Below the pieces are notes generated by a model, which saw nothing but the letters and a program-made list of their open reading frames with translations, had not been told where the DNA came from and ran no database searches. The position numbers and the translations under genes were made by a program. This document shows, in pieces, positions 8,001 to 63,779 of a stretch of DNA of 64,000 bases. Each line of letters opens with the position of its first letter. Within the stretch, counting starts at the first letter, position 1. Origin of the DNA: Chiloscyllium plagiosum (lineage: Eukaryota); the NCBI RefSeq assembly GCF_004010195.1, contig NC_057751.1, positions 19,492,535 through 19,556,534 on the forward strand, in the 5' to 3' direction.

Positions 8001-11000
8001 GTAATAGCAGAACATTTGGAAAATAATCATCCAATCAAGCAAAGTCAGCATTCTTTCCTGAAGAGGAAGTCTGGCTACTTTAGAGTTTTTCCAGGAAGTC
8101 TCAACCTGAGTGAATATTGGGGCACCAGTAGATTTATGTATTTGAACTTCCAGAAGACTTTTGACAAAAGTACCTCACAAAAGGTTAAGTCATGAGTTAA
8201 GCGCGCACGGTGTTGGAGATTAGTATATTGGAATGGATAGAGAATTGCTCATGGGCAGGAACCAGTGAGTGGGGTTAAGGGGTTCTTTTTCAGTTGGTGA
8301 CCTGTAACCAGTGGGGTTCCGCGGGGATCAGTGTTGGAACCGCAACAGTTTACAGTCTGTATGAATGACTTCGAGGAAGTGAATGCACTGTAGCCAAATT
8401 CACAAAAATAAGTGGAAAGGCAGGTTGTGAGAGGGATACAAACAGTTTAGAGAGATTGATAGGTGAAGTAGACAAAAAAAATTGGCAAATGGAGTATGAT
8501 AAAATGTGAAGTTCATTTTGGAACAAAGAAAAAACAGGATATTTAAATAGAGAAACACTGCAGGGAGCTGCAGCACAAAGGGATTTGGGGGGGGAACTTG
8601 TGCATCAAGCATAGAGCTAGCACACAGAGCAGCAGGTAATCAGGAAGGCGAATGGAATGTTGGCCCTGATTTCAAGGGGTTTGAAGTATGAGAGTAGGGA
8701 AGTCTGTCTGCGACTGTACAAGATGCTGATGAGACCAAATTTAGAATACTGAAAGCAGTTTTGGTCCTTTTTTATTAAGAAAAAAAGATCATTTCATTGG
8801 AGGCAATTCAGAGAAGGTTCATTTAAGATGATCTCCAGTAAGGAGGGGATTGTCTTATTAGCAAAGGTTAAACAGGTTGGGATTCTACCCACTAAGTTAG
8901 AAGAATGAAAGGTAATTTTATTGAAATGTGCTGGCGAGGTGAGGAATAGGGAGAGTGAGGAGTTGAACCCTGGGCTACAGGAATGGTGCGGGGGGGAGGG
9001 GGGGTGGGTTTGGATTCCTGGACGAGTGGGGCTCTTTCTGGGGAAAGTGGGGCCTCTACAAACAGGATGGTCTTCACCTGAACCAGAGGGGTACCAATAT
9101 TCTGGAGGGGAAATTTGCTTATGCTCTCTGGGTGGGTTTAAACTAATTCAGCAGGGGGATGGGAACCCAAATTGTAGTTTGATATACAGGGGTATACTAA
9201 GAGTAGAGAGGTCCAAAATGGGGTTTCAAGATTGCATGAGAGCACCGACAAGCAAGAAGTTGGTTTGACGTGTGCCTACTTCAATGCCAGGAGCATCCGG
9301 AATAAGGTGGGTGCACTTGCAGCATGGATTAGTACCTGGGACTTCGATGTTGTGGCCGTTTCGAAGACATGGGTAGAGTAGGGACAGGAATGGTTGTTGC
9401 AGGGTCCAGGAAAGGACATTTGAGGACTCGTCTACTGAGATAGTATGGGCTGAGGTTAGAAACAAGAAAGGAGAGGTCACCCTGTTGGGAGTTTTCTATA
9501 GGCCTCCAAATAGTTCCAGAGATGCAGATGAAAGGATAGCAAAGATGATTCTGGATAGGAGCAATAGCAACAGGGTAGTTGTTATGGGTGATGTTAACTT
9601 TCTAAATATTGACTGGGAATACTATATTTCAAGTATTTTAGATGGGTCAGTTTTTGTCCAGTGTGTGCAGGAGGGTTTCCTGACACAGTATGGGGACAAG
9701 CCAACATGGTGCGAGGCCACATTAGATTTGGTACAGGGTAATGAACCTGGCCAGGTGTTAGATTTGGAGGTAATAGTGACCACAATTCGGTTATGTTTAC
9801 TTTAATGATGGAAAGGGATAGGTATATACTGCACGGCAAGAGTTATTGCTGGGAGAAGGCAGTTATGATGCAATTAGGCAAGATTTAGGATGTGTAGAAT
9901 AGGGAAAGAAACTGCAAGGGATGGGCACATTTGAAATGTGGAGCTTATTCAAGGAACAACTGCTGTGGATCCTTGATAAGTATGTATCAGTCAAGCTGGG
10001 AGGAAGTTGTCAAACGTAGGAGCCGTGGTTTACTAAAGTTGAATCTCTTGTCAAGAAGATGAAGAAGGCTTATGTTAGGATGAGATGTGAAGGCTCAAGG
10101 CACCTGAGAGTTACAGGTGAGCTAAGAAGAGCCAGGAGGGGACATGAGAAGTCGTTGGTGAGTAGGATCAAGGAAACCCTAAGGCTTTCTATAGGTACAT
10201 CAGGAATAAAAAAAATGACTAGAGGAAGATTAGGCGAAAGTGAGGACTGCACATGCTGGAGATTAGAGTCAAGAATGTGGTGCTGGAAAAGCACAGCAGG
10301 TCAGGCAGCATCTGAGGATCAGGGGAATTTACGTTTTGGGCAAAAGCCCTTCATCAGGAGAGTACCACTAGAGTAAGGTTAGGACCAATCAAGGATAGTA
10401 GTGGGAAGTTGTGCGTGGAGTCCAAGTAGATGATGAAGCACTGAATATTTTTCGTCAGTATTCATACTAGAAAAAGACAATATTGGCAAGAAAGATACTG
10501 AGATACAGGCTACTAGACTAGATGGGATTGAGGTTCACAAGGAGGTGGTGTAACAATTCTGGAAAGTGTGAAAATAGATTAGTCCCCTGGGCTGGATGGG
10601 ATTTATCCCAAGGATTCTCTAGGAAGCCAGGGAGGAGATTGCCGAGCCTTTGACTTTGATCTTTATGTCATCATTGTCTATAGGAATAGTGCCAGAAGTC
10701 CGGAGGATGGCAAATGTTGTTCCCTTGTTCAAGAAGGGGAATAGAGACAACCCTGGTAATTATAGACCAATGAGCCTTACTTCAGTTGTGGCTAATGTCG
10801 GAAAGGGTTAGAAGAGATAGGATTTATAATCATGTAGAGGGGAATAAGTTGATTAGGGATAGTCAACATGGTTTTGTGAAGGGCAGATTGTGCCTCACAA
10901 ACCTTATTGAGTTCTTTTGAGAAGATGACCAAACCGTGGATGAGGGTAAAGCGGTTGCTGTGGTGTATATGGATTTCAGTAAGGCGTTTGATAAGATGCC

Positions 11001-14000
11001 CCAAGGTAGGCTACCGCACAAAATGCGGAGGCATGGGATTGAGGGTGATTTAACAGTTTGGATCAGAAATTGGCTAGCTGAAAGAAGACAGAGGGTGGTG
11101 GTTGATGGGAAATGTTCATCCTGGAGTTCAGTTACTAGTGGTGTACTGAAAGGATCTGTTTTGGGTCCACTGCTGTTTATCGTTTTTATAAACTAGCTGG
11201 TTGAGGGTATAGAAGGATGAGTTAACAAATTTGCGGATGACACCAAGTTCAGTAAAGTTGTGGACAGTGCCAAGGGATGTTGGGGGTTACAGAGGGACAT
11301 TGATAAGCTGCAGAGCTGGGCTAAGAAGTGGCAAATGGAGTTTAATGTGGAAAAGTGTGAGGTGATGCACTTTGGAAGGAGCAACAGGAATGCAGAGTAC
11401 TGGGCTAATGATAAGATTCTTGGTAGTGTAGATGAGCAGAGGGATCTGTGTCCATGTACATAGATCCCTGAAAGTTGTCACGCAGGTTAATAGGGTTGTT
11501 AAGACATACGGTGTGTTAGCTTTTATTAGTAGAGGGATTGAGTTGCGGAACCATGAGGTCATGCAACAATGCTGCAGCTGTACAAAACTCTGGTGCAGCG
11601 GCACGTGGAGTATTGTGTACCGTTCTGGTCACTGCATTATAGGAAGGATGTGGAAGCTTTGGAAAGGATTCAGAGAAGATTTACTAAGGTGTTGTCTGGT
11701 ATAGAGGGAAGGTCTTACGAGGAAAGGCTGAGGGACTTGAGGCTGTTTTTGTTAGAGAGAAGTTGAGAGGTGACTTAATTGAGACCTATAAGATAATCAG
11801 AGGATTAGATAGCTTGGACAGTGAGAGCGTTTTTACTCCGATGGTGATGGCTAGCATGAGGGGACATAGCTTTAAATTTTGACCTCTATGCCTAGCTGGT
11901 GTGCAAAAATAATCTCTTGCCCGATCGTATCCTTGTCAAAATGAAGGACTTGCATTTTTATCATGCCTTGGAAGATCCAAAATGTTTCGCAAACTACTAC
12001 GGCAATCCTGTTGGAGACTGTTAAAGTTTAGAGAAGAAATCTGAGCACCCGTCAATCAACCAATTGATTGAAGTAGGCCATAAACAAAAACAAACTTTAT
12101 TACAAATCAAAAGAAATCTTTAAAAAAGAAGCTTTGTTAATTTCACAGTATTATCTAGTTATATTTTATTTTCTCTTGCACATGCACTCGCGCTCTCCTT
12201 TCACTCCCCCTCCAAGTTCTCTAGCTTACTCGGGGTGCATTGCTTAGCCAAAAGTTAATGGAAGAACCTCCATGTAATCTAGCTTTTGGCAGTGAGCCAA
12301 ATAGAAATGCAAGTTAATTATTTTCGTTCAACAACTGTTTGATTCTGCAACCCATGGAAATGTATATTGTTAATGTACTTGTCCCTCCATCCAGACTCCT
12401 TGGCTCCATTAGAGGCTTAGAAGTGTTCAAAGCATATTTATTGATCAAGTTTTCATCATCAGTCCTGTTCGCTGGTGACTGGACTCGAAATGTTAACTGT
12501 TGTTCTCTTTACAGAAGCCGCCAGACCTGCTGTGTTTCTCCAGCATGCTCTTTTTGTTTTCATTGCAGGTTCCTTTGTGTTTATAATCTGAATTATAAGA
12601 GAGCTATCTGCAATCCAATTTCATACCTTTTTGTATTGTCAGAATATGGGGAGGAAATGGCCTTGTGGTATTATTGCTGGACTGTTAAACCAGAGACCCA
12701 GATAATGTTCTGGGGACCTGGGTTTGAATCCCATCACGACTGGTGGAATTTGAATTCAGTAAATATCTGGAATTCAGAATCTAATGATGACCATTAATCC
12801 ATTGTAGATTGTTGGCAAAACCCATCTGGTTCTCTAATGTTCTTTAGGGAAGGAAACTGCCATCCTTCCCTGATCTGGCCTACGTGTGACTCCAGACCCA
12901 CAGCCAATGGGGTTAACTGTTAACTGCCCAATTAGGGATGGGCAATAAATGCTGCCTAGCCAGTGATCCCCACATCCTGTGAATGAATAAAGAAAGAAAA
13001 AGAAACTAATCAACCACAGCCTCATTTCATTCTCCCAGTATTTTAATAATGCTACGATAGCTGATTTCCTCTGAAATTTCTTGTCTTACATCTTCTCAGT
13101 TCCAAATATACTTCCTCCTCCTAAATTATTATTTTCCAGAACCTCCCCTAGGTAATTATACTTCTCCCAAAAATCTAAAGGCTTTAAAGTCCAAGCTTGA
13201 TGACGTCTGTTCCCTACTTCCTGACTTGCTTTATTTTTTACTTGATTCCATCTTATTTGTATCCTGCACTTTGACCTTTGTCTAGCTACCTTAATAATAG
13301 GATGGCTGTACTTAAAATCCTCTTCTTCAATCAATTTTTTTTTCATGTTAGTCAGAAGGCAATTAAATGCAAGGCAACACACATTTCATTGGCTTTGTTC
13401 AAACATGTCATGTTCAGTAAAGGAGATTCAAAACTGCTGTAAGATCAAAACATATGTTGAGTAATCTCTTGAACTTGAATAACCAGAAAATGAAAGATAG
13501 AGCAGAAAGCTTGGTCTTCATTCACTTAAAAACATTTAGTTAGTTGTATACTGTGTATCTCTAACTGAACATTTTGTAGCCCTTCTAAGAATGATGATGA
13601 ATTGGCATCAGCAGCACTGTGCACTCCCTATACTTTTATGTGGAGTTGCTTTGGTTTTTGATTATGTTTGTACAAAAAGTATTTGCAGTTGCGATGAACA
13701 TTGTAATTTTGCAGCAAGGTTAATTCCTTTAAACTGCTCCTCTCAGCTGTCCTTAACTTTGTTGGCCACACAAGCTTTTAGTTGCTGCCTCAATCTTTTC
13801 CAGAAATTTGGAAATTTAATGAAAATTGTTCAAGTAATTTGTTCCCTGATTTTCTTTCCTGCCGCTTGCTTTAAAAAAAAGTGTTTGTTGGCCTGTGCTG
13901 AGCACTTCCTTCTATGTCACAGCCAAGATCAGGAAAGCTCCATGTGAAGAAGCCTGAATGAGGCCCCCGTACATTTAATATGACGGTTTCAGTCATTGGC

Positions 14001-17000: not shown

Positions 17001-20000
17001 CTCCTTAGTTGTTTCAGGGAGCCCCAGCTCCATCAAGGCTCTTGTTTGGCTCCAGTTCCAAAAGCTGTCGGCCACTCGGAAGTTGAGCAGTTCCTGAGTC
17101 CCAGCAGAATGATTGGCCATGGTTGGGACTGCACCCAGCAGAGAGACTCATTGGTGGATGCCAGCCCAACTGCGGGGTAAATGGAGTCAGATAGGCATCA
17201 GTGAGTAAAGGAGCTGTTTTGCAATGGGGAGTAGAGAGAGGAGAGAAATTTGCTGTGAATACTTTACTAGGAAACACTGCATCCCATCTTCCTTGGAAGA
17301 AGGTTGCCAGGGTACTCCAGGCAGACTTCCTGAATAGCAGAAGAATCTCTTTTACTTAAAATGTGCAATTGTATATTTCAAAAAAACTTACGAATAAAGT
17401 ATATTATCCACAAGTAAATACAAGTACAAAACAGGTCTATGCAGAGTTTGCAGTGGGATTTTGACATTCCTTATTTAGAGCTTTGATCCATTGCAGCGAA
17501 AAAGCATTTCTTAATCATGAAAGGAAACTATTTGTATTCCTATTAAGCTGTCGAGGGTACCTCAAAACTTAGCAGACCCTTATTAAATTTTGGCAGAAAA
17601 CCCTTTTGGCTGTGATTTTTCCCAACTGTTTATATACGATTCTGCTATCGAAATAAGGGAGCAGGTTTTAGCAAGGTAAACATAGGGGAAGGTAGCACAC
17701 AATCTCCACTTGCCACAGTAAGGTAAGTAAGGAGAAGGTTAGCAACCCAGTCCTACCTGGCTCTCTTACTACCTTGCTTTAGATCCTGTTGGCATTGGTG
17801 CCTTGTCTTATTTTTACTGGCCCTTGTTTCAAACCAGCTGGAGTTTGGGCAAAAGGAAGTCCAGAGAATTCTAAATGAGGTTTGGGAGTTAAAATTCTAT
17901 CATGATTGGATCAAGGATCTAGAGTTCATATCAAGGTATGGGAGTGAGTTGTGACTTTTCCTGTGACCAAATAAAGTTCAGTAAACTGTTTCCTGTTATG
18001 TTGCAGGCTATATCACTGCCGATTGTCGTAATTGTTCATGGCAGTCAAGACAACAATGCTACTGCTACAATCTTGTGGGACAATGCATTCTCTGAGATTG
18101 TAAGTATGTTTAACTTGAAATATTTTACTTTCAATTTAGAGGTGCAGAGCACGATGAGTAATTGAAGTTTGGCTTTGACATATTCCGCTTATATCTCTTT
18201 AAGACTTCTTTTTAAAAAGTAGCTATGAAGTGCAATTCATGGTGTTGTCACTGAGTCGTGGTGTTAGGTTTAACATGCAAGCCTGGTCAATTCCTAAAGC
18301 TGCTTTTGCTAACTCCTGTCTTTCACCCTATTGCAAACCTTTTGTTCTTGTCTAGCGACCCTTTGATCAAAACCTATTATATTTCCAGCTTAACCTGGTT
18401 TTGATGTAAAGTCACAGCTTGAAAAGTTAATTTGGTTTCTATTCATGTGTGCTGCCGTAACCTTCTGGGTATTTCCAGCATTTTCTGTTTGTTTTTTCCT
18501 TCTTTCGGAATTCCATCATTGACAGTAGTCTGCCTTTTGATCTAGAATCCAGTGTTGTTTTTGTTTTGCAGGAAAGATTGCCATTCCACGTACCAGATCG
18601 AGTGTCATGGTCTCAAATGTGCGAAACCCTCAATATGAAGTTTATGGCAGAAGTACAGTCAACACAGGGCCTGTGCAAAGAGCATTTTGTCTTCCTGGCA
18701 CAGAAAATCTTTGATGAGCAGAGCTACAGCATGGAGGACTTTACCAATCGTATGGTCTCTTGGTCTCAGTTTAACAAGGTAACAACAACTTGTCTAAAAG
18801 TCTGAGTTGTCATGCAGCAATCCTGTTTTGATGTAGCCTGATGTGTTTGGAGTAGTATGATATGAATTGTTACACTAAATTATTATATTTTACTCTGCCA
18901 CATACCCCGAATTAGTTTATGGGGAAATTTTAACCATGGGAGGAAGATGAGATAAAATGACAGGATGTGGGTTTGCTTTGCAATCCCACCGCTTTTAATT
19001 ATCTGTCTTCAGCCTTGAAGGCTACCTGAGCCAGAGGAGTGCTTGTATTTAAGTGGCAGGGTCACATCTCAGTAACAACTTCGGCATGATTTTGGCATTT
19101 TGACTGCATGCCCCAACTACAGGCCACTCTGTTTCTAGCCCAGCAGCAAGGATCCAGGCTGAGGTTTTTGGCTTTCTTCTGTACCAGGAGAATCTCTCAC
19201 TTTGCCCCCATCTGCTGAATTTCCTCCCTGCAATTAAACTCATCCTTTCGATACTCCATGCCCCAGAGGCACTTCATACCCTTCAGGGCAAATAGGTGAT
19301 CTGCTTCCAAGCAGCAGCATTGTGAAACTTAGAAGTATATGACAAGTAACCTGGAATGGATTTTGATTAATTATATGAAAATATCCAGACCTGTAGTTAT
19401 AATCCTCATGTGTCTAGTGATTTTTCAATGACTATGACTCTGTTCTTGATTCCTGCAGGAAAACCTCCCTGGGAGAACCTTTACATTTTGGCAATGGTTT
19501 GATGGTGTGATGGAGCTCACAAAGAAACATCTGAAGGATTACTGGAATAATGGGTAGGAATTTTTAATTGGTATTAGTTGATTGAGCAGCATGTCTGTGT
19601 GGACTGGCAGATGTTAATTTTGGTGTTTGCCTCAAACACCTTTGTTGAAATATAGGTAGTCCTCACTTAAAGCTGTGGTTGTGTTCCTGAGAATCCTGTT
19701 TTTAAGTGAAATTAGTTTAAAGTGGATCATGGGTTCCCCTGGATTTGATGTTAAACTAGTGCTGGGTTTCAGTTGACACTTGCTTGGGAACTAAGTATAG
19801 ATGTTGAAATACTCGATCGTATGTGGGCAACACTGCATTACTGGCTGAAATAACTTGGAAAAAATAAAAACGTTGCCAAATATCACAAAAATGTTGTATT
19901 CATTTACATAACTCTCTCTCTGTTATCACTCCTGAAACTCAGCTCTGTCTGTCTCACTCGCTCTGTCTTTGGTTTGTGTTGAAAGTTCCTTTACAACATG

Positions 20001-37267: not shown

Positions 37268-37515
37268 GAGAAAGTGAGGGCTGCAGATGCTGGAGATCAG
37301 AGCTGAAAATGTGTTGCTGGAAAAGCGCAGCAGGTCAGGCAGCATCAGTTCGAGGGATTTGACTGAGACAAGGTGGGGGGAGGGGAAATGAGGAAACTGT
37401 AGAAATCTGAGCTCATCCCTTGTGGTTGGAGGGTTCCCAGGCAGAAGATGAGGCGCTCTTCCTCCAACCGTCATGTTGCCATGGTCTGGCGATGGAGGAG
37501 TCCAAGGACCTGCAT
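37268..37515 (-). mobile_element. Penelope-like fragment (GIY-YIG C-terminus plus terminal repeat) inserted in a SINE
   Basis: Minus strand encodes MQVLGLLHRQT...LEEERLIFCLGTLQPQG, joined to the family terminal sequence. Confidence 0.85.
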
Positions 37516-37879: not shown

Positions 37880-39720
37880 GGAGAATCCAAAGAGATTCTA
37901 CAAGAAGATGAAGAGTAACTAGGGAGAGAATAGGGCCCCTTAAAGCTCAACAAGGCTGTCTATGTGTGGAACTGCAGAGGATTGGTGAGATCCTAAATGA
38001 ATATTTTGTCGGTATATACTGTGGAGGCTAGGAACTCAAAAGAGTAATGTCTTGAAAAGAGCCCACATTACAGAAGAGGAAGTGCTGGAGATCTTAAAAA
38101 GCATACAGATAGATAAATTCCAAGGACCTGATCAAGTGTATCCCAGAATGTGGGAAGTCAGGGAAGAAATTGCCGGGCTGCTAGCAGAAATATTTATATC
38201 ATCAATAGGCATGGATGATATACCAGAAAACTGGAAGGTGGCTAATGTTGTGCTGTTAGTTAAGAAAGACCAGGGAACTACGGACCAGTGAGTCTAATGT
38301 CAGTGGTGGGTAAGTTATTAGAGGTGATTCTGAGAGACAGGACCTTCATGCTTTTCAAAAGGCAAGGACAGATTTGGGATAGTCAGCACAGCTTTGTGCA
38401 TGGGAAATCCTCTCCGTTTGATTGAGGTTTTTGAATAGGGGACCAAGAAGATGGATGAAGACAGGGCAGTAGACATTGTCTACATGGACTTTGGCAAGGC
38501 CTTTTTAACAAAGTTCCCCATGGTGGACTGGTTATTAAGATTTGATCGTGTGGGAGGGCTGGCCAATCAGATACAAAATTGGCTTGATGATAGGAGACGG
38601 GGAGGAGGTAGAGGGTTGCTGTTCAGACTGGTGGTCTGTGACCATGGTGTGTTGAAAGGACCAGTGCTGGCTCCACTGGTGTTCGTCATTTATATAAAAA
38701 CATTTGGATGAGAATATAGGAGGCATGGTCAGTAGTTTGCGGATAACACCAAAATCTTAGATAACCTTCACTATCCACTATAGCAAGATTATAAAGGGAT
38801 CTTGACCAACTGCGCCAGTGGGCTGAGGAATTAAACAAGGGGGCGTTTAATTTAGATAAATGCAAGGTGTTGCATTTTTATAAAACAAAGTAGGGCAAGA
38901 TTTACACTGTTAATGGGAGGGCCCTGAAGAGTGTTGTCAAAAAGAGACCTAGGGTTGCATGCATATAGTTCTTTGAAGGTGGCATCACAAGTAGACAGGG
39001 TAGTGAAGAAGGCATTTGGCATGCTAGCCTTCAGACAGAGCATTGAGTTGGGACATCATGTTACAACTGTACAAGACATTGAGGCCACATTTGGAGTACT
39101 GTGTATAATTCTGGGAATTATAGTGGAAAGGGTGCAGAAAACCTTTATCAGGATGTGACTGAGACTGGAGGGTTTGAACTCTAAGAGGAGGCTAGATAAG
39201 CTAGGACTTTTTTCCCTGGAGCATAAGAGGCTGAGGGGTGACCTTTCTTTGGGTTTATCAAATCATACGGAGCATGAATAACCAAGGCCTTCTCCCCAGG
39301 ATATTGGAGTCCAAAACTAGAGGGCATAGGTTTTAGGTGAGAGGAGGAAGATTTAAAAGGGAGCTGAGGAGCAATGTTTTTCCTCACAGGGTGGTACGCG
39401 TGTGGAACAAGCTGCCAGAGGAAGTGGTGGAGGCTGGTACAATTACAACATTTACAACGCATCTGGTTGGGTATATGAATAGGGTGCTGGCAAATGAGAC
39501 TAAATAAAAACTGGAAGAACTGTGGATGCTATAAATGGGAAACAAAAACAGAAATTGCTGGAAAAGCTCAGCAGGTCTGGCAGCATCTGTGGAGAGAAGT
39601 CCCATTTAAGATTTCAGGTCAAGTGGCCCTTCCTCAGAACTAGTTCAGTTCAGGAAACCTGGTTGGTTTGGATGAGTTGGGCTGAAGGGCCTGTTTCCAT
39701 GATGTATGATTCTAACTCTA
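37880..39720 (+). mobile_element. Degenerate CR1 LINE (RT to 3' UTR)
   Basis: GPDQVYPR, WKVANV, VYMDFGKAF, GPVLAPLVF. An older palindromic-family element is inserted at about 39508-39645. Confidence 0.92.
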
Positions 39721-46329: not shown

Positions 46330-47312
46330 CCAACTGAATCTTGTTTGAACAGCCTCCAAGACCCTTGAACCCCACCCTTCCAACCACAACAAGGACAGAA
46401 CCCCCAAGTCCTCACCTTCCACCCCACCAACCTCTAGAAAAATCACATCATCCTCTGCCACTTCCACCAGCTACAAACAGACCCCACCTCCAGAGATAAT
46501 TTCCCTCCCCACCCCTATAAGCATTTTGGAAAGACTCCATTCCTGCTGCGACTCCCTTGTCAGATCCATGACCCCACCAGCCCTCATTCCACTCCCGGCA
46601 CCCTTCCCTGCCACCACAGAAAGTGCAACATCTGTGCCCACACCTACCCCCCTCACCTTCGTCCAAAGGATCCTTTCACATTCAACAGAAATTTACCTGT
46701 ACCTCCACTAATGTCATCTACTGTATTTGTCGCATCTGATGTGGTCTCCTCTACATTGGGGAGACAGGACTTCAACGTGTGGATCGTTTCAGAGAACATC
46801 TCTGGGACAGCCGCACCAACCAGCCTGACCACCCTGTGGCTGAACACTTTGACTCCCCCTTCCATTCCATCAAGTACATGCAGGTCCTGAGCCTCCTCCA
46901 TCGCCAAACACTAACCACCCGAAGCCTGGAGGAGGAACGCCTCATATTCCGCCTTGGGACCCCGCAACCACATGGAATCAATGTGGATTTCAACAGTTGC
47001 CTCATTCCCCCCCCATTCCCAGTTTCAAGCCTCCAACTCTACACCACTCTCTTGAGCTGTCCATCACCTTTCCCATCTATCCCCTCCACCCCTTCTCCAA
47101 CCTATCACCTTCTTCCTCACCTTCATCTACTTATTGCATTCTCAGCTACCTTCCCTCCAGCTCCACCCTGTCCCATTTATCTCTCAGCACCCACCTCCCA
47201 TCCCAACCCACAAGCCTCATTCCTGATGAAGGGTTTACGCCCGAAACATCGATTCTCCTGCTTTTCGGATGCTGCCTGACCTGCTGTTCTTTCCCAGCAC
47301 CACACTCTTGAC
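46330..47312 (+). mobile_element. Penelope-like retroelement 3' part: GIY-YIG endonuclease plus terminal repeat with hammerhead motif
   Basis: FTCTSTNVIYCIC..*CGLLYIGETG, RFREH, PVAEHF, LEEERLIFRLGT.QP.GIN. CTGATGA-A-GGG..CCC-GAAAC at 47223-47247. Confidence 0.92.
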
Positions 47313-47812: not shown

Positions 47813-47878
47813 AACTCAGATTGCACCAAGATTTTCAAAGGTACTTTGGGAAAAAATCTGCCTGTTCTGATTAGATGA

Positions 47879-48515
47879 GATTAGATTACTTAGTGTGGAA
47901 ACGGGCCCTTCGGCCCAGCTAGTCCACACCGACCCTCCGAAGAGCAACCTACCCAGACCCATTCCTCTACATTTAGCCCTTCACCTAACACTACGGGCAA
48001 TTTAGCATGGCCAATTCACCTAACCTGCACATTTGTTTTTGGATTGTAGGAGGAAACCGGAGCACCCAGAGGAAACCCACGCAGACACGGGGAGAATGTG
48101 TAAACTCCACATAGACAGTCGCCTGAGGCGGGAATTGAACCTAGGTTTCTGGCGCTGTGAGGCAGCAGTGCTAACCACTGTGTCACCGTATCGCCCATTT
48201 AGATTAAATTCCCTACAGTGTGGAAACAGGCCCTTCGGCCCAACCAGTCCACACCGACTCTCTGAAGAGTAACCCAGACCCATTTCCCTCTGACTAATGC
48301 ACCTAACACTATGGACAATTTAGCATGGTTAATTCACCTAACCTGCACAATTGAAATGATAGGAAGGTAAAGAGCATAGGAAGGAAATTGGAACAGTGGT
48401 ATCGTGCATTAGTCAGAGGGAAATAGGACTGGGCGGGGTTACTCTTCGGAGGGTCGGTGTGGACTTGTTGGGCCGAAGGGCCTGTTTCCACACTCGGTAA
48501 TCTAATCTAATCTAA
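47879..48515. mobile_element. HE1 SINE cluster: full copy (-) 47879-48196, partial (-) 48198-48348, partial (+) 48404-48515
   Basis: Direct similarity to the other HE1 copies. Confidence 0.92.
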
Positions 48516-52225: not shown

Positions 52226-52801
52226 TGTATGATTCTAAGGTTCTGTCAGACTTTGGCCCATTCACTTAACCTATCCCTAGCTCTCTGCATTCTTTCAATG
52301 TCATCCTCACAAAAACCTGACAAAGTTTCAATTATCAGGCCTCCTGTTTTCAATCTGAATCTGAGATCTGGTCTGAAAATCTTCTATCATCCTGTGACTG
52401 TCAGCAATCAGATCTTGTTGACAGGAAATTGAAGGAACTGTGAGAAGTCAACCTATTCTATCCGATGGATTTGAAACCTTGACCACCAGGAGTGTTTTAT
52501 TTTGCTTTTTTAGGAAGCCTGTGACATCTCTGCAGGGTTGTAGTATCTCATAGTCCGTGGAGAAATGTGTATATTGAGATTAAGTGGATTTGGTTCAAGT
52601 CGACACAGTAGTGTACTCTGCCACTTCTTTAAAGAATAAAAAAAAATTTGTATATAATAGACAAGTTGCTTTTGAGTATATTGAAATAACCTACTGAAGC
52701 TTTTTTCTAGATAAATAAAGATAAATAAATTGGCCATTTTGGACATTGCAACACGTACCAATAGTGTAAATGTTCCAGAGTAGTGGAGCTTCATTATCAG
52801 T

Positions 52802-52998
52802 CTAGATTAGTGTGGTGCTGGAAAAGCACAGCAGGGCAGGCAGCATCCGAGGAGCAGGAAAATTGACGTTTCGGGCAAAAGTCCTTCATCAGGCTTTTGC
52901 CCAAAACGTCGATATTCCTGCTCCTCGGATGCTTCCTGCTCTTCTGTGCTTTTCCAGCACCACTCTAATCTCAAGCATCTGCAGTCCCCACTTCTGCT
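52802..52998. mobile_element. Fold-back Penelope-derived element with hammerhead core; 16-bp TSD
   Basis: Perfect TSD gagcttcattatcagt at 52786-52801 and 52999-53014, inverted arms, minus-strand CTGATGA..GAAACGTC. Confidence 0.92.
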
Positions 52999-53453
52999 GA
53001 GCTTCATTATCAGTACACTCTTCCTGGCAGAATCAGAATACTAGTTACTTCTTGGCGATGACAACTGAAGCTGATAATGTCTTCACCCAATTACACACAT
53101 TCACCTTTCAGTAGAGATTTTGGTAACTTGTTAGGAGCTGTGCTGTGCTGGCTGTCAGTGCAGTCAAATCTATCCCATTTTTCTTACCTCTGCCTAAAAA
53201 TGCAGGGGTCAATTGTAACACGCTGCTTGAGATCAGCGAACCTGTATCTCAGAGTTTTGTGTGGTTTAGCCCCACACACAAGGCCTTTATCCATTCAGCC
53301 TCATGGACAGTTCAGTCTCTGTATGTTTTAATGCTCGCTATTTGAAAATGAACTGACTCAGACTCATGATCTCTGGTAACAGTGAATATATTTTAATGGA
53401 ATGAACCTTGCCCAGGCACAAGGAGACAACCAGAAATAAATTCTAAAATATAC

Positions 53454-56878: not shown

Positions 56879-57164
56879 CTGAGAAAATGGTGAGCATTAA
56901 ATCCTGATGTGGTCATGTTCATATCCGTTTGCTGCAGCTTTTAATTTTATGGTTTTATTACGTCCTTTGGTTTCATTATTTCACTGTCTTCAGTACCTTC
57001 TCAATGATAATAGAGGCTGAGTGGCAGTTAGTTACCTTTCAGATATTCCCCACTTTCTGCTTCTATAACAAGAAATGAAGTAAGACAATTAGATTCAGAA
57101 CATATTAAGAACTGATTAACCTTTGTTATTATCGCTGTATTCAATATCATAGGATTGGGAGGGA

Positions 57165-57453
57165 GATTAGATTACTTTAGATTAGATTACTTAGTGTGGA
57201 AACAGGCCCTTCGGCCCAACAAGTCCACACCGACCCACTGAAGCGCACCCACCCAGACCCTAACACTACGGGCAATTTAGCGTGGCCAATTCACCTAACA
57301 TTTTTGGACTGTGGGAGGAAACTGGAGCACCCGGACGAAACCCACGCAGACACGGGGAGAATGTGCAAACTCCACACAGGCAGTCACCTGAGGCGGGAAT
57401 TGACCCCGGGTCTCTGGCGCTGTGAGGCAGCAGTGCTAACCACTGTGCCACCC
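57165..57453 (-). mobile_element. HE1-type V-SINE
   Basis: Reverse complement of HE1 with a small internal deletion. Confidence 0.92.
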
Positions 57454-58612
57454 AAAATCATACAGAACAGGAAACTTCAGCCCATCGTGCCTCTGCTAGG
57501 TTATCCAAATAGTCATAATCCCCTGATTTTCCCCATAGCCCTACAACCCTTGCTACCTTCATCACTGAGTGGCTCCATTTATTTTGCCCTGACCTGTAAG
57601 AAAGCCACCTAACCATAGCACAGCAGATTAGGTGCTATGGCATACCACGTCAGGGATATATTCCCAACAGGTTAGGTGCCACAGATTGGATGAAGGGAGC
57701 TGCTCTGTGACATAGACAGCAATCATTATCACTCAAACAGATGGTCATGTGACTGTTGCAGGAACTTGCTGTGTGCAAGTTGCCTGCTGTGTTTCCAATA
57801 TTGAAACAGTGACTATATTACAAAAGAGATAATTGGCTACAAAGCACTTTGGTCATCCTGAGGTTATGAAAGGTGCTATGTGAATACGAGTGTTTCTTTA
57901 ACATCAGTTTAGTAAATCTGATGTATTCATAAATATGATTGAAGAGAGGAACTTGTGAGGGGCATTCTTGCTTCAAGCGTTCTGGGGATTACCTTTAGAT
58001 TGTTTTTGTGTTCAATTCAAGTGATACACACAGACCAAATGTCAACCCCCGCCCCTCGCCCTCAGAGATATACTCCTGCTTTTGGAAGTGGGTGTTTGGA
58101 TCAAGGTCTGATCTCACCCCCACAGTCCTCCTACCTGAAAACACACTCACTTCTTAGCTTACTGTCACCTCCTCTCTGGATACTCCCCTTGGCTGCAGGG
58201 GGTCAGTTTGCCTTGCCAGTTGTATGATACCACCTTAGCCAAACGAAGCCGATCTCAACTGTTAACACTTTAATCCCTTAATAGACGAGACTGGCAAAAA
58301 ACTTTGTCGATCACAGATTTTCAAACTGTGAATTCAGCTAACATCAACTGTAATACATGGGTTCAAATCCCACTCAACAATCACAGCAACTTATATTTAT
58401 TTAGCATTTTGAACACAGTAAAGGTGCTTCACAGGAATGTTATAAAACAAAATATGAGACAGTTGCACATGTTAGGGTAAATGCATAAATGCTTGGTCAA
58501 AGAGGTACGTTTTAAAGGAGGAAGGAGAGCCAGAGAGATTGAGGGGGGAGACTTCCACAGGTTTTGGTAGTTGAAAGCATTGCTGACAATTGTGGAACAA
58601 TTAAAGTGAGAG

Positions 58613-59845
58613 ATAGAGTTACAGAGATGTACAGCATGGAAACAGACCCTTCGGTCCAACTTGTCCATGCCGACCAGATATTCCAACCCAATCTAGTCCC
58701 CTTTGCCAACATTTGGCCCATATCCCTCTAAACCCTTCCTATTCATATACCCATAAATGCTGTAACTGTACCAGCCTCCACCACTTCCTCTGGCAACTCA
58801 TTCCATACACGCACCACCCTTTGCATGAAAAAGTTGACCCTTAGGTCCCTTTCACATCTTTCCCCTCTCACCCGAAACCTATGCCCTCTAGTTCTGGACT
58901 TCCCCACCCCAGGGAAAAGACTTTGTCTATTTACCCTATCCATGCCCCTCATGATTTTATAAACTTCTATAAGGTCACCCCTCAGCCTCTGATGCTCCAG
59001 GGAAAACAGCCCCAGTCTATTCAGCCTCTCCCTATAGCTCAAATCTTCCAACCCTGGCAACATCCTTGTAAATCTTTTCTGAACCCTTTCAAGTTTCACA
59101 GCATCTTTCCAACAGGAAGGAGACCAGAATTGCACACAATATTCCAACAGTGGCCTAACCAATGTCCTGTACAGCTGCAATATGACCTCACAACTCCTGT
59201 ACTCAATAGTCTGACCAATAAAGGAAAGCATACCAAACGCCGCCTTCACTATCCTATCTACCTGCGACTCCACTTTCAAGGAGCTATGAACCTGCACTCC
59301 AAGGTCTGTTTGCTCAGCAACACTCCCCAGGACCTTACCATTAAGTGTATAAGTCCTGCTCTGGTTTGCTTTCCCAAAATGCAGCACCTCGCATTTATCT
59401 GAATTAAATTCCACCTGTCACTCCTCAGCCCATTGGCCCATCTGATCAAGATCTCATTGTACTCTGAGGTAACCTTCTTCGCTGTCCACTACACCTCCAA
59501 TTTTGGTGTCATCTGCAAACTCACTAACTGTACCTCTGATGTGCACGTCAAAATCATTTATATAAATGACAAAAAGCAGTGGACCCAGCACCCGATCCTT
59601 GTGGCACACCATTGGTCACAGTCTGAAAAGCAACCCTCCACCACCACCCTCTGTCTTCCACCTTTGAGTCAGTTCTGTATCCAAATGCCTAGTTCTCCCT
59701 GTATTCCATGAGATTTAACCTTGCTAATCAGTCTCCCATGATGAACCTTGTCGAATGCCTTACTGAAGTCCATATAGATCACATCTACCGCTCTGCCCTC
59801 ATCAATCCTTTGTTACATCTTCAAAAAACTCAATCAAGTTATGAG
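58613..59845 (-). mobile_element. Relatively young CR1 (HER-like) RT and 3' end
   Basis: 223-aa uninterrupted ORF2 C-terminus (58743-59414: MEFNSDKCEVLHFG...[10 protein letters not shown]...[13 protein letters not shown]) plus 3' UTR related to the HE1 tail. Confidence 0.95.
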
Positions 59846-60005
59846 ACATGTGCAAGATGCCCCAATTAGAATAAAGACATTGCTTAACCACAGGTTAATA
59901 TAGGTCATTGGGCATAGAAAGTAATGGGTGGATGGGACTCGGAGCTGAAAAGGAGTACAGGTCGTAAAGTTTTGGAAGATCTCAGGTTGGTAGACAGTGG
60001 AAGAT

Positions 60006-60206
60006 GGGAAAAGTGAGGACTGCAGATGCTGGAAATCAGAGCTTAGAGTGGTGCTGGAAAAGCACAGCCGGTCAGGCAGCATCCGAGGAGCAGGAAAATC
60101 AACGTTTCGGGCAAAAGCCCTTCATCAGGACTTTTGCCCGAAACGTTGATTTTCCTGCTCCTCGGATGTTGCCTGACCGACTGTGCTTTTCCAGCACCAC
60201 TCTAAT
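60006..60206. mobile_element. Fold-back Penelope-derived element with hammerhead core; 16-bp TSD
   Basis: Perfect TSD gtagacagtggaagat at 59990-60005 and 60207-60222. 75-bp arms 60043-60117 and 60131-60205. Confidence 0.93.
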
Positions 60207-60276
60207 GTAGACAGTGGAAGATAGGAGGCTAGCCAGGATGCATTGGAACATTTGAATCTGGAGGCAACACATCAGA

Positions 60277-60323
60277 GACTTGACTAAATACCCTCGACTT
60301 GACTAAATACCCTCAACTTGACT
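60277..60323. repeat. 19-bp tandem duplication (gacttgactaaataccctc x2.5)
   Basis: Read directly from the sequence. Confidence 0.9.
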
Positions 60324-60719
60324 GTTTTTGAAGAAAAGCAGAGAGTTATCCTCATCAATAATTATCCTTCAAGCCAACATCACCAACACAAATTGGTCAA
60401 TCATGACATCACTGTTTATGGGATCTTGCTGTGTATAAAATATTGCCTCCTTGACAACAGTTGCTCCTTTTCCCAGTTATGTATTTTGTGATGTAATGTT
60501 GTTACGGTCGACAATGCTTCAATCAAATGATCTCTTCATTCTAACTGAAACTGTGCAGAACACTCCTTATACTGTTTTCTTAAAATCAATGCATTCAAAC
60601 TATTGGATAATTCAGACACTTCTACAGCAAAATTGACTTTGAGTTAACAGGAGTGGACTATCTATAGATTGAAGGTTCTCTACTTCTTTCCCTCTGTCGC
60701 ACATCCATTACTAACATAC

Positions 60720-60876
60720 AGAACACACAACAATCTAAGCCTGCTGATCCCAGTATGGATCTAGATTCCATCTTGGGGCAATTGTTTGCTGCAGAGTAAT
60801 AGCTAGCCACTGTGTCTGAACTCCTGAACTGATGCCGACCACCAAAAGGTTCTGAATGACCCCGATTCTGATCTAC
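60720..60876 (-). pseudogene. NAB2: Degenerate NAB2 exon 6 homologue
   Basis: ctctgcaacag| acceptor and |gtatgt donor. 157 nt, not 3n. The phase-1 frame stops after 23 codons. WLAITLQQTI (compare human WSRHILQQTL) is in another frame, and MDEGLRL is missing. Confidence 0.6.
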
Positions 60877-61124
60877 CTGTTGCAGAGAGTGGGGCAGTTG
60901 ACACTCGCCCCTAAAGCTGGCAAGGAAAGGGAAGCGTTTTGCAGACAAACTATCTGATTCCCGTAGGTAAGCTCTGAGGGATAACTAGGTAAATTTAGCC
61001 TCACCAGTCTTAGAAAAAGACACCCGAACCAGACCCTGAGAGATGTGTCTAGGACACAGTGGGATAGCAAAACAGCAGTAGCAGCTGGCCCAGAGCATGA
61101 AGACAGAGTCAAACCTCTGAAGGA

Positions 61125-61252
61125 CAAAGTGAAGAGTGCAGATGCTGGAGATCAGAGACGACAGTGCGATACTGGAAAAGCAGTCGGTCAGGCAGCATCT
61201 GAGGAACAGGAGAATCGACTGGCTGTGCTTTTCCAGCAGCACACTCTCGACT
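61125..61252. mobile_element. Internally deleted fold-back Penelope-derived element
   Basis: Family sequence with a short inverted arm. Imperfect TSD tcaa...tctgaagg(a/g)caa at about 61109-61127 and 61252-61270. Confidence 0.75.
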
Positions 61253-61608
61253 CAAGGTTCTGAAGGGCAAGATCAGCACAAGCATGATTCAGTCTTTCTT
61301 TACACAGAGGTGACAACCTCTGGAATTAGAAGGGTTTTTGAGGCCAGGAAACCTGATCCCACTCCCATTCGCATATCGGAGTGCCAAAAATGAAAGGCTG
61401 AAGGGTCAACTCGATCACAACTGATGTTCTGACAGAAAGGACTAGTCAATGGAATCACAGTGAGTATCATTTCTCCTCCTGACCAGTAAATACAGTGCAT
61501 GTTAACTTTATTATTTATCCACTGTTTTATTTTAATAAATAATAATAACCCTCCCCTACCCACCCAAAAGGCAATGAAAATCTAGAGTAGAACAAATGTT
61601 GTACATAC

Positions 61609-61762
61609 CTTCCATTTGTCCAGAGAGACTATCCCTGAATAGGCTGCCAGTATCCTCCTCTTTGTTGCATCTGGACCCTGCTGAAGCTTTCCTTTGGTGT
61701 TTGATCAATTCAGTTTGACTCTGTATCAGCATTGCGTGCTTCAAGTCAGATTCTAGCTGGTG
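61609..61762 (-). CDS. NAB2: NAB2-like exon 5 homologue (HQLESDLKHAML...EEDTGSLFRDSLSGQME)
   Basis: ttttccaaatag| acceptor, aag|gtatgt donor, only frame 0 open, phase 0-1. The end aligns with human EEDSASLSGESLDGHLQ. Confidence 0.85.
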
Positions 61763-61801
61763 CTATTTGGAAAATAAAAAGCTGAATAATTAAAAGTGTT
61801 A

Positions 61802-61928
61802 CTGGCATTGTACCATACCAGTGCTGGTACTGTATCACCTCAACAATGGCACTGTGCTGCCTGAGCCCTGGTACTGTACCACCTAGCCCCTGGAACTACC
61901 ACCTCAACCTGGCACTGTATCAGCCCAG
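61802..61928. repeat. Degenerate ~20-bp tandem repeat (ctggtactgtaccacct...)
   Basis: About 6 imperfect units just upstream (minus strand) of the NAB2-like exon 5 acceptor. Confidence 0.6.
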
Positions 61929-62252
61929 TTTGGAACAATTGTAACATCCCTACTACTGGACCAGAGATCCAGGTTCAAGTCCCACTTCAAGATTTAATGG
62001 AAGGTATGCCAACAGAATGACTAGCAATCTGTAAACCCTTCCAACACACTTACAACAGATAGTAAGAGCAGAAGTTTCAGAACCGTGTAGAAACTGCAAC
62101 ACTATAGCCTCCCCATGTTAAAAGACTCCACACACAAGTTTTTGTCATGAGCATTCTGATGGACTTTGAGACACACACCACCCAGTTCTGGCAATTGTAC
62201 CAACCCAGGCTGGCACAGTACTCCAATACGTAAACCCAAAGACTGGACATAC

Positions 62253-62304
62253 CTCAAGTTTCATATTCTTCACAGTGGGACCATGAACTTCATCGGAGTT
62301 TAAT
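62253..62304 (-). CDS. NAB2: NAB2-like exon 4 homologue (RLNSDEVHGPTVKNMKLE)
   Basis: ttttccctccag| acceptor, gag|gtatgt donor, 52 nt. Aligns with human RLHPEELGGPPLKKLKQE. Confidence 0.88.
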
Positions 62305-63019
62305 CTGGAGGGAAAATAATGATTTAAAAGATTATTTGAAGATTCCAAAGAAACTAGACTCTCATGAATGAATAACTTTGTTTTAAATTTGTCTTCCCCA
62401 ATCATAGAATCAGTCAGTCTTGGAATTTTAAAAACGAAGTAATTTAGCACATTATACATGGGCTTATTGAAGGAGAGCTATTTCCTTAGTCTGCATTCAA
62501 TTTTTTAAAAAACGTCTATTTCAAATATTTGTCCACATCCATTTTAATGTCATGTCTGAACGATCCTCTGTGTACAGATCTGTATTCTAAACATTCTATT
62601 AATGATAATCTTAAAATTATATTCACTAGTTACAGACTCACTAACTAGTTGAAATTGTGTTTCTTCCCCAGTTTATCATATCCCCTTCCAACGTTCAACA
62701 GCTCCCCTCTTTCCTTTGTTTGTTCCTAGCCACATACGCACACTTTCCAGCAGGGGTCAGTGTGTACTTATTAGGATCTGATTTCCAATTGAAAAGTCCG
62801 AACTCCCTCAAGAATCGACATCAACTGACTCGGGAAATACAGAGATTACATTTAGGGTCTGCTAGACAAGATCAGAGGCTTCGTTCGCAACAATGTCATA
62901 ATAACACTTAGAGGGCCACAGAAAAATTCTAGGTTGAAATAAATCAAAGGATTTGGAATCAACAAAAGCCTAGCTGCTCTGTGCACCCTGGTAAGGGTGG
63001 GGAACCTGCTCTGTCTTAC

Positions 63020-63129
63020 CGTGCTTGCCTCTGAGCCACCAGTCGAGCCAGTGAAAGAAAATCGACTCTCCCGATCAGTAAGTTGCTATCCACCCTGCAA
63101 AACGGAGCGGTCGCCTCATTGCTGGTCAA
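63020..63129 (-). CDS. NAB2: NAB2-like exon 3 homologue, NCD2 end (LTSNEATAPFCRVDSNLLIGRVDFLSLARLVAQRQAR)
   Basis: ctctttccag| acceptor, cg|gtaaga donor. Aligns with human [34 protein letters not shown], about 8 codons shorter. Confidence 0.85.
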
Positions 63130-63779
63130 CTGGAAAGAGGACAGCAGGAGTAAACAGTTTAAACATTTAAAAATATATAGGAAATCGAGTGTGCCTAACA
63201 GCCAAGTGCACAAATGAGAGCGTCGCTTAGTGTAAGCTTGAAGAATTGTGAGGAAATTACATTTTTAAGATTCGGACAACGAAATCACCATCAATGAGAA
63301 ATGTGCACACTCGCAAGCAACTTGATCAATACTGGTATGTGCCACAGTGCCAACTCTTTATTTATCCTTTATTTATCTCACCTGCAGTGCTAAAGAAACA
63401 CGATTCATTCTGAGAAATTTGCGTTTTAATAGTGAGGGATGGGGGACAGAGAAATTCTACTTCAATATATTTTCCATTGGGGTGTCCAGAGCCGGCTGGT
63501 GATTTCCTCAAATAAAAACAGCAAGTGCTGGAGAAGCTTCAGATTCGAAACGTTAACGCTGTTCGTCTCTCTCCACAGATTTCTTTTTTGTTCCGCTTGT
63601 TTCCGGTCTCCAGAGTCCGCAGGATTTTACTTTTATTTGGTGATTTAGTCATAGAGATGACCTCGCACTCGCTTTGCACTATCGTCTAAGATGACTTGCC
63701 CTTTATTCCCCCTCATAACTTACAAAAGGTTGAGTTAACAGAATGTCATAAAGCCCATATTTCCGTTTCTCATTCTGCC

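Follow-up and report, generated by a model that had tools for sequence, protein, structure and literature searches.

The 201-bp insert found in an intron of a NAB2-like gene of Chiloscyllium plagiosum is a real but ordinary Penelope-like stub, and the pattern that it shows has already been described. It is very probably an old, passive and very short insertion, for which a Penelope-like element (PLE) of the Neptune type supplied the RT/GIY-YIG protein in trans, and whose mirror arm was built during insertion. Taken alone, the locus carries little weight, being old, inert and one more stub of a class already known. Its value is that of one data point on how PLEs make inverted pLTRs and tails, a step which reviews, as far as the sections considered here go, call undefined (PMC8557442). 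All positions refer to the whole stretch of 64,000 nucleotides that was analysed, which is called the window.

Two perfect 16-bp direct repeats at 59990-60005 and 60207-60222 enclose the insert at 60006-60206 (chance approximately 6e-7, a rough estimate for repeats within 50 x 50 positions). Its inverted arms, 60043-60117 and 60131-60205, are 75 bp long and show two mismatches (60068/60180 and 60079/60169). An earlier note on this DNA had proposed the 201-bp insert, the perfect target-site duplication (TSD) and the 75-bp arms with two differences, all of which were reproduced by alignment. The 37 bases at 60006-60042 have no mirror partner. According to the alignments and to contig indels and loose ends they represent, on the minus strand, a one-sided tail that corresponds to the 3' end of a Penelope-like unit, with at least five family bases missing at 60041-60043. 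The long (sense) arm at 60043-60130, which is also on the minus strand, aligns as the 5'-truncated end of a pLTR and starts two bases ahead of a hammerhead core. The short inverted arm on the plus strand (60131-60206) consists of the 75 bp and a T at 60206, which alignment and the contig letters identify as a family base and which the long arm lacks. The first six bases of the right TSD match the next family bases, as taken from contig loose ends, at five of six positions, which amounts to a microhomology.

The centre of the hairpin (60118-60130, from alignment and fold) is formed by a C.A mismatch, a CCT/AGG stem of 3 bp and a loop of 5 nt at 60122-60126, and through this one mismatch and the three additional pairs the stem grows to 79 bp. 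The fold-back junction had been placed at the stem-II palindrome. That placement was wrong: the core's GAUGA (60122-60126) forms the apex, and the strands switch at 60130/60131, just 5' of the core. Variants described as common to both arms and absent from other copies are indeed shared by the arms but not unique to them. They are minority variants of the family, whose majority letter accounts for 83-87% (60069) and 73-78% (60101) of the contig depth in three runs, and the C at 60069 is also found in the copy at 61 kb.

The minimal type I hammerhead core is located on the minus strand at 60101-60128, with C3 at 60128, G12 at 60108 and a U as N17 at 60101. By descriptor and alignment all conserved positions are kept, as the earlier note had it, including the loopless stem III with palindromic positions 15.2/16.2; the triplet is GUU, stem II comprises 4 bp, and one extra A is present between positions 9 and 10.1. 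A descriptor of the minimal core finds two sites in the window (47223-47250 on the plus strand and 60101-60128 on the minus strand), and a mean of 0.015 sites was obtained in 200 block shuffles. A comparison with the Rfam hammerhead models, which had been suggested as a check, did not retrieve the motif: none of the nine matches for the whole window (E<=5) and neither of the two matches for 60080-60138 (E<=10) is a hammerhead. Rfam matches to miRNA precursors lay below the gathering score and were rejected, as they merely reflect the hairpin shape.

The minus strand of the insert folds with -161.9 kcal/mol (z-score -22), and none of 200 shuffled sequences was equally stable. To force the hammerhead fold on the insert is predicted to cost 42.5 kcal/mol, and the pair probability calculated for stem II is 9e-13. 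The suggestion that the long hairpin sequesters the ribozyme agrees with this predicted barrier, and the motif is thus predicted to be locked inside the hairpin. Since the inverted arm precedes the core in the pre-mRNA of the NAB2-like gene, hairpin formation is expected to be co-transcriptional; the inverted arm would be transcribed first and would capture the hammerhead in the 79-bp hairpin. We infer that the hammerhead is a passenger in this pre-mRNA. Counts of hammerhead motifs in shark genomes include many copies that are unable to fold. Among the 40 of 175 variants listed, changes at the invariant G12 make up 12-20% of the family contig depth, a level like that of a CpG outside the core (13%). 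Two non-CpG changes of the family inside the ribozyme (60124 and 60114, from the same 40 of 175) fall on N7 and loop II, which are free positions, and both are commoner in an RNA run than in the contigs.

The host gene is encoded on the minus strand. Its last four coding exons were mapped by tblastn to 63135-63019, 62309-62253, 61762-61610 and 57063-57031, its NCD2 exon was recognized with Pfam, and this exon gives a 93% match to a Chiloscyllium plagiosum protein. The insert is housed by the last coding intron (57064-61609, minus strand, delimited by tblastn of the homolog and the Pfam NCD2 exon). With exons mapped on both sides of the insert, the ribozyme strand is the sense strand of the NAB2-like pre-mRNA, as had been stated before. 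The NCD2 exon scores only at the Pfam cut-off, and the NAB2-like gene is divergent. Short NAB motifs gave no match in the window for that reason, and the gene was identified by the Pfam and homolog searches. A STAT linker-domain exon at 18461-18802 (plus strand) and the NAB2-like gene at 57031-63135 (minus strand) are arranged tail to tail.

One relative of the insert is a broken Penelope-like copy on the plus strand at 46330-47312, which was recognized from its translation, Pfam and homologs. It comprises a CX4CxxC linker, a CCHH GIY-YIG endonuclease and a pLTR with an intact hammerhead core; it has no tail and ends where the short arms of the fold-backs end. The insert corresponds to the pLTR end of this copy with 86% identity over 86 bp, and the Penelope origin claimed earlier is thereby confirmed. 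The remnant of the open reading frame is interrupted by a stop and frameshifts, with linker and GIY-YIG domain in shifted frames. It is 57-71% identical to three proteins with weak Pfam matches to GIY-YIG, one of which also matches RT, and the GIY-YIG match of the remnant itself is weak and below the cut-off (E 0.022). The CX4CxxC motif is found in one frame at approximately 46610-46640, and two cysteines precede LYIG. The Neptune/Nematis clade is defined, in the part of the source considered here, by a CX2-5CxxC linker upstream of a CCHH GIY-YIG domain (PMC8557442), and by its linker motif the copy appears to be of the Neptune/Nematis type. This very Penelope had been proposed to have mobilized the insert. 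The kind of helper stands, the actual helper does not: the copy is broken and differs from the long arm at 60 kb at 11 of 70 positions, so that it marks the kind of the helper and not the helper itself.

A BLAST search of the insert against the window revealed related pieces at 10.2, 12.5, 37.3, 39.6, 47.2, 52.8 and 61.1 kb, two of which are further fold-backs. The one at 52786-53014 (plus strand, by alignment) belongs to the same subfamily and has an exact 16-bp TSD and 78-bp arms at 91% identity; with respect to the tail its loop points the other way, and 12 bp are deleted at the base of its long arm. The length of the TSD and the A/T at the junction are common to this copy and the one at 60 kb. 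The third fold-back (61116-61266, minus strand, by alignment and descriptor) lies in the same NAB2-like intron and has short arms, no hammerhead core and an exact 8-bp flanking repeat. In this single case the start of the sense part coincides with the predicted cleavage site, and there is an overlap of three bases with the inverted arm. A plain 5'-truncated copy with a tail and a 7-bp flanking repeat but without inverted arm was found by BLAST and descriptor at 10228-10372 (minus strand), and it starts at the same 5' edge of the core. The Penelope-like piece at 37271-37515 has a 10-bp flanking repeat; in it the endonuclease end and a short 3' stretch are joined directly to the pLTR downstream of the hammerhead, and the core is absent. 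Decayed copies at 39540-39650 and 12450-12560 belong to a sister family, in which the hammerhead-like core is combined with a different stem II and a different stem I. In four of the five tailed copies examined a GAAG is found 3-8 bases outside the tail end (60000-60003, the region of 52789-52792, 61119-61122 and 10228-10231; not at 37.3 kb). It was noticed after the fact and is absent from the consensus of contig loose ends; it could reflect a target preference or pairing of primer and template.

The insert shows all hallmarks of an insertion unit of EN+ PLEs, namely pLTR sequence, an inverted 5'-truncated copy, a tail of 37 bp at one end and a TSD of 16 bp. Arkhipova et al. 2013 (PMC3846280), as far as considered here, describe inverted pLTRs that are 37 bp shorter than the direct ones, an optional 31-bp tail, TSDs of 8-10 bp, palindromes at the junction and solo pLTRs; self-priming on an antisense template is their proposal for the origin of the inverted pLTR. 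In the part of Craig et al. 2021 (PMC8557442) considered here, an inverted 5'-truncated adjacent copy and a tail of 30-40 bp are general PLE traits of undefined origin. Insert and published units have in common the head-to-head inverted copy at the 5' end, a short arm that is approximately 37 bp shorter, the one-sided tail, the palindrome at the junction, a TSD and the occurrence as solo pLTR units. They differ in that the insert is a 201-bp sequence without open reading frame, in its TSD of 16 bp (8-10 bp in the rotifer examples), in the helper, which is of the Neptune/Nematis type by its linker, and in their high frequency, with three such units within 64 kb.

The core itself has all sequence features of the minimal hammerheads (min-HHR) described by Cervera and de la Pena 2014 (PMC4209133). 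It shares with them the full core, the extra nucleotide between 9 and 10.1, the pair G10.1-C11.1, the palindromic 15.2-16.2 and the missing loop 3. It deviates from them in a stem II of 4 bp (7-8 bp in Schistosoma), in a GUU triplet that arose by CpG decay from the GUC of the family, in the inverted arm that takes the place of the 5' strand of stem I, and in the enclosure of the motif in a 79-bp hairpin. In the sections of that paper considered here, single motifs do not cleave and dimers cleave at a low level, and most cases are single motifs from truncated PLEs, pairs on opposite strands being noted as well. Non-LTR retrozymes are, in the parts of the sources considered, short, non-coding head-to-tail tandem units which yield circles and have a type I hammerhead, a TSD of more than 4 bp and a proposed PLE origin (PMC7229834; 10.64898/2026.07.22.740005). 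The insert agrees with them in its short non-coding sequence, type I hammerhead, TSD length and PLE origin, and differs in having a single core in a head-to-head hairpin. Head-to-tail units with at least two complete hammerheads were not found; there is one core with head-to-head arms.

The central question is whether the mirror arm was inherited or made on site. The earlier note had assigned the insert to a distinct non-coding retrozyme/SINE-like family, for which the hairpin RNA of a master locus would have to be retrotransposed as a unit by a Penelope protein. The two copies within 64 kb speak for such a fold-back family, as they agree in near-equal length, register of the centre, 16-bp TSD and junction A/T. 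The same is true for multi-copy contigs that bridge the centre without gap in two runs (among the pieces listed), which a master would also yield. Each of the three fold-backs in the window has a centre of its own, however, and the loop orientation differs between the two full copies, the third copy has another junction, and several other junction partners are present in the contigs. In the four arms of the two full fold-backs approximately ten columns vary, of which three are informative, and all three group by locus and none by side; the comparison covers two full fold-backs and three sites, has a chance of 1/27 if three outcomes are equally likely, and would be mimicked by gene conversion between arms. 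Furthermore, a head-to-head unit is not tandem, so that no dimer or circle as defined for retrozymes would arise, and the core is predicted to be locked. A distinct family of this kind therefore appears unlikely, and the assignment to it is not supported.

Of the public data, 4 of 24 listed runs were compared, namely three contig sets and one raw RNA run. The same fold-back centre recurs at other loci, which counts against a mirror arm made at each insertion: among 24 contig pieces listed of 186,880, 11 span it in this register and have at least 31 letters on either side, four of them free of gaps, and two centre-bridging pieces have approximately 10x the depth of unique flanks, with the reservation that contig depth does not equal copy number. 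Ten of the 15 joints listed of 246 in the contigs of three runs have one end at 60130, where the query stops resembling the family, so that this pile-up is partly due to construction; six of the ten are flagged as "between: not known". The four joints that connect opposite strands have partners at 60041, 60089, 60095 and 60098. Junctions scattered at random, the pattern that had been named as contrary to the fold-back family, are not seen, and one side of many junctions lies at the 5' edge of the hammerhead. A fixed 5' end of the RNA is expected to give this result, and a master fold-back is not needed. Likewise, a fixed 5' edge of the RNA together with the native CCT/AGG match would make the centre recur without a master. 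The different centres, the grouping of arms by locus and the one fixed junction side with variable partners indicate that the mirror arm was probably made at each insertion and not inherited from a fold-back master.

The arms also carry information about their common origin. The three short arms and the tail-less copy at 47 kb all terminate at one GACT site, give or take a few bases (4/4). In two of the three fold-backs the short arm keeps family bases at this site that are lost from the long arm (T at 60206; AG at 52802-52803; letters from contig loose ends), so that the long arm in its present state was not the template of the short one. Of the proposal that one arm was copied from the other, the common template thus remains, and a short arm derived from the present long arm does not.

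It was considered in addition that the fold-back arose only after insertion, by replication slippage, repair or reverse duplication of a plain stub, or that the shared variants stem from later gene conversion between the arms. Long hairpins can homogenize, and a CpG transition that reaches up to 22-27% of the family depth accounts for one of the two variants shared by the arms. Such a history is nevertheless very unlikely, as at two separate loci a single perfect 16-bp TSD encloses both arms, the short arms stop at a constant position of the family and have family bases that are missing from the long arms, and PLE insertion yields this very structure as its standard primary product. Even less probable is a co-opted function in which the intronic ribozyme or hairpin would cleave or regulate the NAB2-like pre-mRNA. 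The sense orientation in the intron, the full core, a junction that happens to give a 6-bp stem I and the retention in two species would fit this idea. Against it stand the predicted barrier of 42.5 kcal/mol and the loopless stem III, which needs a second copy, single minimal motifs showing no cleavage in vitro in the sections of PMC4209133 considered. Moreover, the other family copy in the intron (61 kb, the only one found) has no core, and the two species are close, with flanks differing by 2-3%, so that retention needs no selection.

For the preferred reading, a mirror arm built during insertion, a sequence of steps can be suggested, based on these three loci and on biochemical work published for another clade. 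The endonuclease would cut the two target strands 16 nt apart. One target 3' end would prime reverse transcription at a distal start site of an RNA containing the pLTR, giving rise to the tail and the long arm, and this first cDNA would run to the 5' edge of the RNA just ahead of the hammerhead core. The second arm would come from the same template lineage, either with the other target 3' end priming on the same RNA at a proximal start site 37 nt upstream, or with the first cDNA folding back on its own CCT/AGG hairpin and copying itself. The two halves would be sealed via the 3-bp CCT/AGG inverted match that flanks the GAUGA of the core. Double priming appears to be the most likely route, with only a slight preference over fold-back of the cDNA. 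In the latter case the first strand, ending in AGGA, would pair with its own CCT and copy itself, which would yield the centre at 60 kb exactly; later events would have to account for the flipped loop at 52.8 kb and for the losses from the long arms, and an additional cut would be required to set the end of the short arm. With double priming the cDNAs would anneal through CCT/AGG, and patchy repair could lead to either orientation of the loop. Fixed short-arm ends, bases lacking in the long arms and both loop orientations are, in these few copies, consistent with both target strands priming on one RNA. As the genome is rich in units of approximately 200 bp, the two routes should be separable by counting.

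Relevant biochemistry is available from in vitro work on the Poseidon element of Anolis (Frangieh et al. 2024, PMC11167929). In the parts of that study considered here a purified PLE protein cleaves both target strands and extends them, synthesis starts at two RNA sites on either side of the tail, mutation of the hammerhead leaves insertion unchanged, and the start sites lack homology to the cut DNA. The paired start sites, the extension of both strands and the dispensable hammerhead would together produce the anatomy of the insert. On the other hand, Poseidon belongs to another clade, and the same parts of the study do not explain inverted arms. The start sites without homology to the cut DNA stand in contrast to the 5/6 microhomology at the end of the short arm, which counts against the comparison.

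More tentatively, and with rather less than even confidence, we suggest that the stubs may record a symmetric double priming. A dimeric PLE protein would prime both cut strands on one RNA at two sites which bracket the tail, and both cDNAs would extend up to the 5' edge of the hammerhead and join via CCT/AGG into a mismatched centre that is patchily repaired. If true, this would explain the fixed end of the short arm, the one-sided tail, the shared private variants, the small deletions at the proximal site of the long arms, the A at the junction and both loop orientations, and it would replace antisense self-priming as the source of inverted pLTRs. No published statement of symmetric double priming was found in the literature searched, whose coverage leaves most subscription journals outside. 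The same search retrieved nothing relevant on twin priming with Penelope or on MITE-like palindromic Penelope derivatives, and no shark-specific description of such elements.

The insertion predates the split of two species. Both of its junctions are present in a second species (organism B), the left one in a piece of 173 bases with five differences and the right one in a piece of 153 bases with three differences and a 19-base gap, and each contig piece includes 20-27 diagnostic element bases beyond the TSD. An empty site was not seen in the three contig sets. We also considered a polymorphic insert, as the word shares are 0.92 in run X1 and 0.67-0.75 in 11 other runs of organism A. This was rejected for a second sample of that organism (run X2), where the left junction is present with 0 differences; the right junction of X2 is not among the pieces listed, which counts neither way, and X1 may be the source sample and thus not independent. 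A perfect 19-bp tandem duplication is located at 60277-60314, 55 bp to the right of the insert. The 19-base gap of organism B falls in the same stretch, and the duplication is therefore probably younger than the insertion.

In the raw RNA run, of which approximately 2 in 100 reads were examined, 3321 family reads were found in both orientations, 11 of them at >=99%. There were no reads on the flanks of the insert and no pile-up of ends, which counts neither way because the poly(A) single-cell library is blind to RNA 5' ends and circles. No RNA run is among those listed with words of the insert. In a metagenome scan with a 19-base stretch none of 20 loci extended past 26 bases, and all are chance matches.

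Inverted pairs in the window are not confined to this family. Another short repeat family forms one at 48199-48510, with arms of 64 bp (92%) and 30 bp (93%) separated by an unrelated spacer. Direct repeats of at least 7 bp were not found on the flanks of this pair, and a full copy of the same repeat adjoins it at 47870-48197.
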